A model generated the notes under the pieces. It was given only the letters and a program-made list of their open reading frames with translations, made no database searches and had not been told where the DNA came from. A DNA stretch of 32,000 bases from Methanobacteriota archaeon (lineage in GTDB: Archaea; JAADCQ01; Methanopyri; Methanopyrales; Methanopyraceae). The stretch covers positions 52,372-84,371 of the forward strand of contig JAMOPO010000052.1 in assembly GCA_027064425.1 (NCBI GenBank), in the 5' to 3' direction. The position numbers and the translations under genes were made by a program. Positions 10,594 through 13,404 of this stretch are shown in pieces; position 1 is the first letter of the stretch; each line of letters begins with the position of its first letter.

Positions 10594-11709
10594 CTAAAGC
10601 CTGGTCCGGATGACCGTGTGGCCCCAGATCGCGGCGGACAGGATCGTGAACGTGGCCAGCGCGAACGAGTTCATCGCCCGTGAGAACAGGAAGGCACCGA
10701 TCAGCGACTGGACGGCGAAGGCGATCAGGCACCCGAACAGCATAGCCTCCCGGGCCACGATCCGGGAGGAGAACTCACACTGATGCATCTTGATGTATCG
10801 GGCCAGGCACCGGGAGCCCACGTACAGCGTGAGCCCCACCCACAGCGACAGCAGGAGCGAGCCGATGTACCCGAAGTCGAAGGCCCAGACGAAGACGCCG
10901 GGGAGCATGTAGTCGAGCAGGTCCTTTCGCGTGACCAGCGCGCCGTGCAGGGTGGGCACGTCCAGGTTGAACATGACCAGGTATCCCACGGGCAGCGTCA
11001 CGAACCCGTCACCGAACCCGCGCCAGTGGTAACCTGCCGGGAGCGGCTTCGTCGAGTGCCCGATCAGGTGCGCGTTCTTCAGGATGAGGTCGAGGCCCGG
11101 GACCGTGTACTCGGCGAAGCGCTGGACTCGGACGACCGGGCTGAGCACGGGCTTGTTCAGCGCGCGGGCCAGTGCCTCCATCATCGCCACGAACCCGACC
11201 GCGATCACGGACACCGCGGCGATGGTCCGACGGCTCATCCTAGCCGCGCGCATGGCGAGCGCTCCAACCCGCGTCTCCCCCTCCAGGTACCTGGCGATCA
11301 GGTACTCCGTGCCGACCCAGCAGAGGAACCAGGAGAGCAGGTAGTCACGATGCATTAGCCCGCCAACCATGCCGACGTAAAGCCAGAGCAGGTTCAGCAC
11401 CGGCCGGGTCCGGCGCGCGGCCGAGATGCCCCGACTCTCTAGGATTCCCACGAGGTACCGCGCCGAGGCCCAGGCGGCCAGCGTCAGCGGTCCGAAAGGA
11501 TGGGTGAACTCGTGCCGAGGCATGGGCAGGAACAGGGACAGCACGTCCACGGAGAACAGCAGGGCCATGACCACCAGGGTGAAGATTGACAGCGAGAGCA
11601 CGCGCTGGATGGTCACCGTGGAGTAGGCCAGCGTGAGTGGGATCAGAGTGTGGGTCATGATGACGAAGTCCAGCAGCGCCTCTCCGGTGTTGTGCGGTAC
11701 CAGGTACAA
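10594..11709 (-). CDS. Polytopic membrane protein (9-10 TM), possible SEDS/Wzy-like glycan polymerase; last gene of the Mur-ligase operon
   Basis: TTG 11709 lies 1 nt after the upstream stop. About six N-terminal TM segments are followed by an ~85-aa loop (..GHSTKPLPAGYHWRGFGDGFVTLP..DLLDYMLPG) and three C-terminal TMs (VFVWAFDFGYIGSLLLSLWVGLTLYVGSRCL...). The function is an inference only. Confidence 0.5.
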   Translation of the reverse strand: MYLVPHNTGEALLDFVIMTHTLIPLTLAYSTVTIQRVLSLSIFTLVVMALLFSVDVLSLFLPMPRHEFTHPFGPLTLAAWASARYLVGILESRGISAARRTRPVLNLLWLYVGMVGGLMHRDYLLSWFLCWVGTEYLIARYLEGETRVGALAMRAARMSRRTIAAVSVIAVGFVAMMEALARALNKPVLSPVVRVQRFAEYTVPGLDLILKNAHLIGHSTKPLPAGYHWRGFGDGFVTLPVGYLVMFNLDVPTLHGALVTRKDLLDYMLPGVFVWAFDFGYIGSLLLSLWVGLTLYVGSRCLARYIKMHQCEFSSRIVAREAMLFGCLIAFAVQSLIGAFLFSRAMNSFALATFTILSAAIWGHTVIRTRL

Positions 11710-11710
11710 G

Positions 11711-12901
11711 TTACCACCCTCTGGTCCGCCGGTGTAGCAGCTCTCTGACGCATCCGAGCACGATCAGGGTGACGCCCAGGGCCGATCCCAGCAGGCCGAG
11801 CGCGTGCAGCACCTCGGACGGAACGGGGGTCTTCAGCGGGCGCTTCTTGTACCCGGGAGGCAGCGGCCGCATGTACACCGTGACCAGGTTAGCCTTCGGT
11901 TCCACCTTGATGTCGCTGGGCAGCACGTAGTCGTAGCCCAGCAGGGTGTTGTTGTCGATCGCGTTGTCAATGGCCCGGGCGATGTGCGTTGGGTCCCGCT
12001 TCCCGCGCTGGATCAGCGACTGCACGATCTCCACGATGGTCGCCTTGTCGTAGGCGCTCCTGACCCCGTACACGCGCACCACCGGCTGGTTCTTACGCAC
12101 GGTGATCAGGTCGCGCGCCACCTGCCAGGCGTACTCCGTCTTCAAGCTGGAACCGCACACCGGGCACCGGGTGTACCTGCCCGCCGCCGGGTACGGCGCG
12201 CTCCAGCCGCACTTGGGGCACACCTTCCGGTAAGGAGCGTCCAGCGGAAACCCGCGCTCGTTGAGCCGAGCGGGCACGAACGTGTCGCCGGTGGAGAGTC
12301 CCGCGGTGATGTTCACGGCGCCGCCACCGTACTTCTCGCCCGACTTCCTGGCCACGTAACCCATGACCCGGGTGAGCACCTCCGTCGCGGGCAGCCCGTC
12401 CCGGATCATTCGGCCCGCCATGATCGCCGCCTCGACGCGAACCTTGGTCGCCGTACCGTACAGCGGGTTACCCGGCGTGTTACGCAGGTGGATGACCGCG
12501 CACTTGACGTTGGGCGGGATCTTGACGATGTTCGGGCCCGCGCTGCTGTGGTACTGCTTGATGATGATCTTGTTCCCCTTCACGATGACCACGGTGATGT
12601 CGTAGCTACCGCCCACCACGATGCCCCGACGCGGGCCGCCCACCAGCAGTCGGTCCGTAGGCGACTTCTCGACACCGGCCCGGACGGCCTCCTCCAGCGG
12701 CATGCCCAGCTCCAGGCGACGGATGCACGCCAGGATCGCCTCCAGCCGCGCGGTACCCTTACCTAGACCACCCGCCAGCACGGCCACGTGCAGCTTTTTG
12801 GAGACCAGGAACGTGGACTGGAACATGTTGGGAGCGAACGACATCGAGCCGGCGGCTGCGCCGTTCGGGTCCTTGCCCGTGGGATCCGTGATGACGATCA
12901 T
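11711..12901 (-). CDS. Membrane-anchored envelope protein with an internal CxxC..CxxC ribbon and a C-terminal TM; function unknown (the true start is probably upstream of the first ATG)
   Basis: The first canonical start is ATG 12901. C-terminus: LHALGLLGSALGVTLIVLGCV followed by RELLHRRTRGW. Cys pairs: CPKCG...CPVCG. An in-frame signal-peptide-like stretch (RRKIIRWAAILALALLLLPSASSA) is encoded at 12902-12982 with no ATG/GTG/TTG. Confidence 0.6.
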   Translation of the reverse strand: MIVITDPTGKDPNGAAAGSMSFAPNMFQSTFLVSKKLHVAVLAGGLGKGTARLEAILACIRRLELGMPLEEAVRAGVEKSPTDRLLVGGPRRGIVVGGSYDITVVIVKGNKIIIKQYHSSAGPNIVKIPPNVKCAVIHLRNTPGNPLYGTATKVRVEAAIMAGRMIRDGLPATEVLTRVMGYVARKSGEKYGGGAVNITAGLSTGDTFVPARLNERGFPLDAPYRKVCPKCGWSAPYPAAGRYTRCPVCGSSLKTEYAWQVARDLITVRKNQPVVRVYGVRSAYDKATIVEIVQSLIQRGKRDPTHIARAIDNAIDNNTLLGYDYVLPSDIKVEPKANLVTVYMRPLPPGYKKRPLKTPVPSEVLHALGLLGSALGVTLIVLGCVRELLHRRTRGW

Positions 12902-12987
12902 GTTGAACGTGGCCGAGGAGGCCGAGGGGAGGAGCAGCAGGGCCAGCGCGAGTATCGCCGCCCACCGGATGATCTTCCGACGCCCCC

Positions 12988-13404
12988 TTACCTCGGCAGC
13001 CCGTAGTCCTCCGTCACCCTCACGACCACGACGCCTGACCGCTTGATCGTGATCTGGACCGACTTGACGGGCTTAATTTTGGTACCGGGGATAACGCTGC
13101 GCATGGCGTAGATGCGCGCCCTCCTGACCGCCTCCTGCAGCGGGATTCGCTTGCCGTCCGGGGTGATCAGCACCCCGTTCTTGATCGTGGCACCCGGCCT
13201 CAGTCCCGCCGCCATCACGTTGCTCCTGACCACCTCCTCAGGCAGGAAGTCGCACCCTACCACGTCCACACCCACGATCTTGACCCCTCCCTGCTTGGGC
13301 AGCGGGCGGCTCGCCCAGGCCGTGTACTCGGCCAGCCTCCCCAGGGTGAGCAGCAGCGCTCCCAGCAGCATGATGGCGAGGTTACGCCTCGACACCCGGA
13401 TCAT
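12988..13404 (-). CDS. Bitopic membrane protein with a possible FtsQ/DivIB-like POTRA ectodomain
   Basis: The likely ATG at 13404 (MIRVSRRNLAIMLLGALLLTLG...) overlaps the Mur-ligase stop by 23 nt. It has one N-terminal TM. The following KIVGVDVVGCDFLPEEVVRSNVMAAGLRPG...IKPVKSVQITIKRSGVVVVRVTEDYG resembles a POTRA pattern. The track ORF reaching 13557 is an over-extension. Confidence 0.5.
   Translation of the reverse strand: MIRVSRRNLAIMLLGALLLTLGRLAEYTAWASRPLPKQGGVKIVGVDVVGCDFLPEEVVRSNVMAAGLRPGATIKNGVLITPDGKRIPLQEAVRRARIYAMRSVIPGTKIKPVKSVQITIKRSGVVVVRVTEDYGLPR

Follow-up and report, generated by a model that had tools for sequence, protein, structure and literature searches.

Near-cognate start codons have been described in both bacteria and archaea. 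In Deinococcus, N-terminal proteomics showed that dnaA starts at ATC and rpsL at CTG (Baudet et al. 2010, PMC2830850), and among the cases summarised in that paper are the AUU starts of Escherichia coli infC and pcnB and the CTG start of plasmid RepA. In Haloferax volcanii, near-cognate codons made up about 30% of the putative alternative sites obtained by ribosome profiling, which were set aside (PMC7261190), and a CTG start has been suspected, as a speculation, for the orthologs of HVO_1510 (PMC8305020). Here we describe a gene in a 32,000-nucleotide window (the whole stretch of DNA analysed, positions 52,372 to 84,371 of contig JAMOPO010000052.1, GenBank assembly GCA_027064425.1) that probably belongs with these cases. 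Gene finders call it on the minus strand from ATG 12901-12899 to TGA 11713-11711, as a product of 396 amino acids (aa), whose close homologs bear the name Methanopyrus. The minus-strand gene order is MraY-like transferase, Mur-type ligase, 138-aa bitopic protein, the 396-aa-called gene and a polytopic membrane protein. The locus matches the pseudomurein cluster A described by Lupo et al. (PMC11915815), and the gene is a member of that cluster in a Methanopyrus species.

Like the Deinococcus genes, the Methanopyrus genes considered below are intact and conserved with an apparent ATC or CTG start, the codon is kept in relatives, annotation pipelines truncate or mis-start the products, and several genes per lineage are involved. 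Deinococcus, however, is a bacterium with IF1-3 and formyl-Met-tRNA and with peptide evidence for the starts, whereas Methanopyrus is a hyperthermophilic archaeon with aIF1, aIF1A and aIF2, for which the evidence is purely comparative; the N-terminus of the cluster A protein would not be directly visible because the secreted precursor loses it. As in infC, pcnB and RepA, a near-cognate codon would be read by the initiator tRNA behind a Shine-Dalgarno (SD) sequence, but in infC the weak codon underlies IF3 autoregulation, whereas no regulatory logic is evident for the cluster A gene. The haloarchaeal cases are similar in having archaeal near-cognate codons and conserved N-terminal regions lacking a canonical start; haloarchaea are mostly leaderless, whereas the Methanopyrus sites are SD-led, operon-internal and conserved across the genus.

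Upstream of ATG 12901-12899 the frame of the gene is open from 13072, with TAA 13075-13073 as its boundary, and none of the 57 in-frame codons in this stretch is ATG, GTG or TTG. The in-frame extension translates as ...EVRGRRKIIRWAAILALALLLLPSASSATFN-M-IVITDP. Read from the translation, a 21-codon segment (12911-12973, minus strand) has the features of a Sec-type signal peptide, namely a basic n-region ((M)IRW), a hydrophobic core of at least 10 residues (AAILALALLLL) and a c-region with small residues at -3 and -1 (PSASSA), followed by a Thr codon (ACG, 12908-12910). From ATC 12973 to AAC 12904, G or C occupies 23 of 24 third codon positions as against 14/24 first and 13/24 second positions, a pattern resembling that of the gene body (GC content at third positions, GC3, of 0.90) with P of about 0.001 at 68% GC.

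Six Methanopyrus genomes were compared (G-labels, G000 being the assembly that holds the window, on its contig C52; 57 contigs, 1.54 Mb, 67.8% GC), together with individual loci (L-labels), of which the close relatives L007 and L008 were the only ones coming from a single metagenome scan. The same gene order was found in five Methanopyrus-type loci and in one more distant methanogen. In all orthologs examined, a hydrophobic segment and a small-residue site are followed by T-(F/L/C)-N-(M/V/I)-I-V-(I/V)-TDP. The distant, Methanobacteriales-type locus L006 has an ATG start, MKGKIIKLLGIFLLF...AAA/TLNV (the slash marking the predicted cleavage), overlapped as ATGA by its upstream gene (140 aa), which indicates a translationally coupled operon. 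Upstream of the signal segment, the Methanobacteriales-type relative has a canonical ATG and some of the Methanopyrus lineages a canonical GTG. Met-12901 is not conserved as a start, its place being taken by Val in L006 and L014 (Methanobacteriales) and by Ile in L008. These comparisons of sequence confirm that the upstream frame encodes a predicted export signal ahead of any normal start codon. The 396-aa call also occurs in many other Methanopyrus assemblies, including RefSeq records (P0003, P0124, P0126-P0131 and P0135); WP_456466581.1 and WP_456482912.1 are examples of such records. In L008 (contig Ga0256835_1000017, 2426-2520), from a 68%-identical Methanopyrus-like lineage, Pro precedes the conserved Thr, which is unusual for a signal-peptidase site.

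Since no 16S rRNA gene was found in G000, the anti-SD sequence was taken from G001 and G002; in these relatives of the genus the 3' end of 16S rRNA is ...GGATCACCTCC. In G000 the SD peak lies at an aligned distance of 11-15 nt before the first canonical starts, where GGGGG occurs at 26-74 per 1000 genes, vs at most 7 per 1000 at 16-25 nt. GGGGG, with its G.U pair to the anti-SD, was seen to be the predominant SD form in G000 and G002, and about 23% of the first canonical starts in G000 have GGGGG at 11-15 nt. In the window, the stop codon of the upstream 138-aa gene (TAA 12990-12988) is embedded in GAGGTAAGGGGG, and the GGGGG at 12983-12987 (minus strand), which pairs with CCUCC of the 16S 3' end via one G.U, is separated by a 9-nt spacer from ATC 12973-12971. 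The aligned distance of 14 nt falls inside the peak of this genome.

An intergenic G-run, 8-10 nt, ATC and an Arg codon, in this order, are shared by all four Methanopyrus lineages seen. The SD-ATC distance is 14 nt in G000, where no GTG is present, 15-16 nt in L002, L003 and L007, 13-14 nt in L004 and L005, and 14 nt in L008. The GTG codons of the relatives occupy non-homologous and badly spaced positions: three codons upstream of the shared ATC in L002, L003 and L007 (SD-GTG distance 6-7 nt), two codons downstream of it in L004 and L005 (19-20 nt), and eight codons past it in L008, which is midway through the h-region (20-38 nt). In L008 an in-frame TAG stands two codons ahead of the conserved ATC; from this ATC the product reads MRRFLAILVAL..., whereas from the GTG it would be an uncharged, Thr-rich stub with a weak signal. 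Upstream of the ATC, conservation at the protein level is absent (RRK, VGA, DPA, TP). The SD geometry, the shared ATC-Arg and the lack of conservation upstream point to ATC 12973-12971 as the probable start, and the locus combines conserved and required upstream coding, no canonical codon, an SD at native spacing and a conserved candidate codon. We consider it probable, on comparative grounds, that this cluster A gene starts at AUC 12973-12971 and encodes a cleaved signal peptide and an ectodomain of Ntn (N-terminal nucleophile) fold with Thr as residue 1.

In this model, the GGGGG SD would position the 30S subunit 9 nt upstream of the AUC, the subunit coming in directly or belonging to a ribosome that has only just finished the upstream gene at TAA 12990-12988, and initiator Met-tRNA would pair with AUC through a third-position mismatch, so that the codon would be read as Met. 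The product would be a 420-aa precursor with a 21-residue Sec-type signal peptide; cleavage after ...SASSA would expose the invariant Thr as residue 1 of the exported Ntn-hydrolase-fold domain, and the C-terminal helix would tether this domain to the membrane. The expected mature N-terminal peptide with a free Thr would be TFNMIVITDPTGK, or TFNMIVITDPSGK in its semi-tryptic form. As for the geometry of stop and start, the ATGA overlap of L006 corresponds in G000 to a 14-nt gap with an SD of its own, and SD-directed initiation suffices to explain the data without invoking termination-reinitiation.

The earlier note on this window, made from its letters, had reported the in-frame signal peptide and the lack of ATG, GTG and TTG in the 57 codons, with coordinates that all proved correct; its list of near-cognate codons and its placement of TAA 12990-12988 within GAGGTAAGGGGG were likewise borne out. 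Its proposal of non-canonical initiation, with ATC 12973 among the candidates, gained support from the SD spacing and the ATC of the orthologs, and the SD-like G-run that it placed 14 nt from this codon agrees with the SD spacing of the genome itself.

The alternative that survives best, although we regard it as unlikely, is that the gene is started by another near-cognate codon, ATC 12970, ATA 12955 or one of CTG 12946, CTG 12940 and CTG 12937, perhaps by SD-free reinitiation after TAA 12990-12988. Each of these codons is in frame, near-cognate starts elsewhere in the genus are more often CTG, and in the distant L006 the gene is coupled to its upstream neighbour through an ATGA overlap. However, ATC 12970 (12968-12970) and ATA 12955 are 17 nt and 32 nt from the SD, respectively, both outside the 11-15 nt peak, and the CTG codons lack an SD and lie inside the h-region, so that initiation at them would give a product with no basic n-region and a shortened hydrophobic core. 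In the alignment, the ATC of the other lineages falls opposite ATC 12973 and none of the alternative codons. ATC 12970 is the second choice because of its distance of 17 nt and because GAG takes its place in L002 and L003.

The occurrence of such starts elsewhere in the genus was analysed by comparing stop-to-stop translations of G000 with those of G002, a complete Methanopyrus genome of 1,694,969 bp, over 1,198 ortholog pairs. A first screen over-called N-terminal extensions (209 of 1190 pairs) because alignments extended into non-coding DNA of high GC content, into upstream genes overlapping in another frame and into conserved promoter sequence; spurious extensions of this kind include the TGGGGGATCGCTTTATC and WRRRRRST... 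cases. It was replaced by a column-wise test, in which aligned columns preceding every canonical start of both genomes by three codons or more were scored for an SD at 12-16 nt in each of the two. An SD was present in both genomes for 10 of 35 CTG/ATH pairs vs 81 of 5,075 pairs of other codons (odds ratio 25, P = 2.5e-10) and, with identical codons only, for 7/28 vs 29/1,165 (P = 9e-6), both P values overstating independence because the genomes are related. The second-position near-cognates ACG, AAG and AGG showed no SD enrichment (2/78). One of the 10 matches, an internal NMD3 site, was a false positive. A SelD-like gene (a minus-strand open reading frame (ORF) on G000:C15 and the minus-strand ORF 296794-297748 of G002) reads ...HG-TGA-ACKLPQGDLE in both genomes; its TGA is a probable selenocysteine codon and served as the positive control of the screen.

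The G000-G002 comparison yielded nine candidate genes with conserved coding sequence before any canonical start in both genomes. For NMD3, GGGGGTGA-N7-CTG-AT(C/A)-TGY-CAY was found in five genomes and GGGGG-N10-CTG-ATA in the sixth, G004; an in-frame TAG stands immediately 5' of the CTG in G001 and G002, and no canonical start precedes the first zinc knuckle in any of the six genomes. The THEP1-type NTPase (Pfam NTPase_1) shows SD-N8/9-CTG-CCN-CAY-AAC throughout the six genomes; a canonical start is first reached after the Walker A motif, 25 codons downstream in G000 and 93 codons downstream in G002. Counted from the CTG, position 1 of Pfam NMD3 falls at residue 3, and for NMD3 and NTPase_1 the profile starts at residue 3 or 4. 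The DUF2117 gene shows AAGGGGG-N8-ATC-Arg in four genomes, and in the most divergent species, G004, TTG occupies that site; in G003 an in-frame TAA lies six codons upstream with no canonical codon near. In the DUF2096 gene, five genomes show GGGGG-N7-ATC, and G004 carries a GTG at SD spacing. Weaker candidates are a transglutaminase-like membrane protein, a radical SAM protein and a metallo-beta-lactamase-fold protein with CTG, and a TrkA-N/DHH protein (ATT/ATC) and an RsmB-like methyltransferase (ATC/ATA) with ATH codons.

The loci concerned are L115-L120 for NMD3 (G000:C57:159089-160150 and orthologs), L121-L126 for the THEP1-type NTPase (G000:C52:137776-138309 and orthologs), L138-L143 for DUF2117, L132-L137 for DUF2096, and L108, L109, L111, L112 and L114 (G000 contigs C45, C27 and C15), conserved between G000 and G002, for the weaker candidates. 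As judged by comparison with the DNA, the initial M of Methanopyrus NMD3 corresponds to the ATC codon in one NCBI record (P0137) and to the CTG codon in another (P0138), and it was also observed that some public NMD3 records start at a downstream ATG and truncate the protein; annotation pipelines have thus accepted such starts case by case.

The conservation of the ATC across the genus, together with the use of ATC or CTG starts by other genes there, makes it probable that the missing canonical start is more than an accident of one strain. The contrary explanation, that the start is missing through an assembly error around 12970-12990 or through recent start loss (a dying gene, or a useless cytoplasmic product from Met-12901), appears somewhat less likely still than the use of a neighbouring near-cognate codon. 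In its favour, G000 appears to be a draft resembling a metagenome-assembled genome (MAG), and relative to L002 and L003 it has a G-to-C change where these have GTG, plus small indels. However, the GTG position of the relatives is out of frame in G000, so that one error alone would not bring it back; despite a 3-nt indel the extension stays in frame, with GC3 of 23/24 and signal-peptide character; the gene body is 90% identical to that of the relatives with all invariant residues present; and two other assemblies give near-identical proteins likewise called as 396 aa. NMD3 and the NTPase, moreover, lack a canonical start in every genome of the genus. Of the two alternatives raised in the earlier note, a strain-specific start mutation is thus probably not the explanation, given the ATC conserved across the genus, and a sequencing error is unlikely, no single change restoring GTG in frame.

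The mature protein with its stop codon (11711-12910, minus strand) is predicted to form an Ntn-hydrolase-like ectodomain ending in a basic tail. The AlphaFold model, built with 24 homologs, had a predicted local distance difference test score (pLDDT) of 82.8 and a predicted template modelling score (pTM) of 0.73, and displayed a four-layer alpha-beta-beta-alpha sandwich. Foldseek matched it to Ntn hydrolases with E = 1.5e-6, and VIA-align gave Z 17.6 against circularly permuted taspase-1 (6ugk_B; 222 residues aligned, root-mean-square deviation 3.9 A), Z 15.4 against a DUF1028 protein (2imh_A) and Z 12-13.8 against HslV, Anbu and 20S proteasome beta subunits. Residue 22 of the model is paired with residue 1 in HslV, Anbu and proteasome beta and, in the circularly permuted taspase-1, with residue 2; it is the first aligned model residue in most of the Ntn alignments, where it stands opposite the Thr1 nucleophile. 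Thr22, which directly follows the SASSA site (AxA type), is invariant in 24/24 homologs together with N24, T29, D30, P31 and D35, and K59 is nearly so. Sequence profiles did not place the protein in the Ntn superfamily: Pfam gave no family for it or for either neighbour, the only match being a sub-threshold DZR zinc ribbon in the 396-aa-called protein. An inserted CxxC-x14-CxxC ribbon (about 12155-12220) and a C-terminal transmembrane (TM) helix (about 11747-11806), which precedes the basic tail, lie within the mature protein on the minus strand.

The model therefore resembles the Thr1 Ntn hydrolases (HslV, 20S proteasome beta, Anbu and taspase-1) in its sandwich fold and in having an invariant Thr at the first residue of the aligned core. 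It differs from them in having no detectable sequence similarity, in being exported and membrane-anchored, and in its inserted Cys4 ribbon; in addition, the nucleophile would be unmasked by removal of a signal peptide, not by autolysis of a propeptide. Thr22 is a probable catalytic nucleophile on the strength of the model, signal peptidase would cut before it, and the enzyme would act on pseudomurein. The simplest reading of the modelled fold is an exported enzyme of Thr1 Ntn type whose nucleophile would be freed by signal-peptide removal. Published analyses of pseudomurein cluster A list its two hypothetical proteins without a known domain, and these probably include the 396-aa-called family; a literature search found no paper linking pseudomurein genes to an Ntn hydrolase.

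These data also bear on a start at ATG 12901 itself, by which the 396-aa protein would be cytoplasmic or tail-anchored and the upstream hydrophobic frame untranslated. Gene finders pick this ATG, internal in the reading that we prefer, and the zinc-ribbon-like Cys pairs could suit such a protein; we nevertheless hold this to be very improbable. No SD precedes ATG 12901, Met-12901 is not conserved, being Val or Ile elsewhere, and the homologs with ATG starts include the signal peptide. Starting at Met-12901 would yield a product that lacks the invariant Thr22 and Asn24 and has a truncated first beta-strand. Among the orthologs, the hydrophobic segment was conserved and several carried a canonical start upstream of it, the outcome that the earlier note had asked about, and none was seen to begin at the equivalent of Met-12901 with the upstream segment missing. 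Its topology argument likewise stood: family members combine a signal peptide at the N-terminus with an anchor at the C-terminus, and a cytoplasmic location does not follow from the Cys pairs.

A programmed -1 frameshift fusing the 138-aa protein to the 396-aa-called protein was rejected as hardly credible: the open downstream frame extends back to 13072 and covers the 3' end of the upstream gene in the -1 frame, but relatives differ in how the two frames are related (+1 in L002, one shared frame interrupted by TGA in L003, ATGA overlap in L006), the overlap read in the downstream frame shows no protein conservation, no slippery heptamer was seen on reading 12991-13072, and a fusion would invert the topology of the ectodomain. 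C-to-U editing of ACG to AUG was also rejected, the only in-frame ACG in the stretch being the Thr codon after the signal peptide.

Several points weigh against initiation at AUC. A literature search found no translation data for Methanopyrus. When G000 was taken alone, ATC codons upstream of the first canonical starts were not enriched for SD sequences (5.3% vs a background of 5.8%), while CTG was about 2-fold enriched in the same test. aIF1 (SUI1), reported in work cited in PMC8211752 to discriminate against non-canonical starts in Sulfolobus, is present in all six genomes, so that relaxed starts cannot be put down to its loss. The conserved ATC could be a mere conserved Ile codon, GTGs being near in the relatives, and G000 looks like a draft, MAG-like assembly (57 contigs, no 16S rRNA gene found). 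ARAGORN detected no initiator-like tRNA with a GAU or CAG anticodon, a weak check on an incomplete tRNA set, as it finds only two CAU tRNAs per genome.

The two proposals taken jointly, that start choice in Methanopyrus is systematically relaxed and that the cluster A gene encodes a previously unrecognised exported Thr1 Ntn enzyme for pseudomurein, have in our judgement about an even chance of being right. On the proposal of relaxed start choice, a strong GGGGG/GGAGGTGA SD at 12-15 nt would permit AUC/AUA/AUU and CUG as regular starts, near-cognate starts would be evolutionarily stable in about 1% of genes, including those for NMD3, the THEP1-type NTPase and the cluster A protein, and nearby GTGs chosen by annotators would often be just Val codons. 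No paper on Methanopyrus start codons was found in a literature search.

The immediate neighbours lie on the same strand. The upstream operon gene (12988-13404), whose stop codon stands 14 nt before the proposed start, encodes the 138-aa protein with one N-terminal TM helix and is syntenic with the 140-aa gene of L006. The downstream operon gene (10594-11709) encodes a 371-aa polytopic membrane protein with no Pfam match, which is probably the polytopic OG0000796 of pseudomurein cluster A (PMC11915815).

Near-cognate starts as such were already known, and what is added here is their apparent genus-wide pattern in Methanopyrus and the predicted Ntn fold of a protein of the pseudomurein cluster. 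For annotation, it means that the public 396-aa records omit the signal peptide and an invariant, probably catalytic Thr, and that other Methanopyrus genes suffer the same truncation or mis-starting. To our knowledge, direct evidence on the stringency of start-codon choice in archaea is very thin; the conserved AUC and CUG starts behind strong SD sequences in the cultivable M. kandleri would offer a system for studying the control of stringency by aIF1, aIF2 and the SD duplex. If the proposed reading is true, the exported Ntn enzyme would be a candidate for an extracellular peptide-processing or cross-linking step of pseudomurein synthesis.

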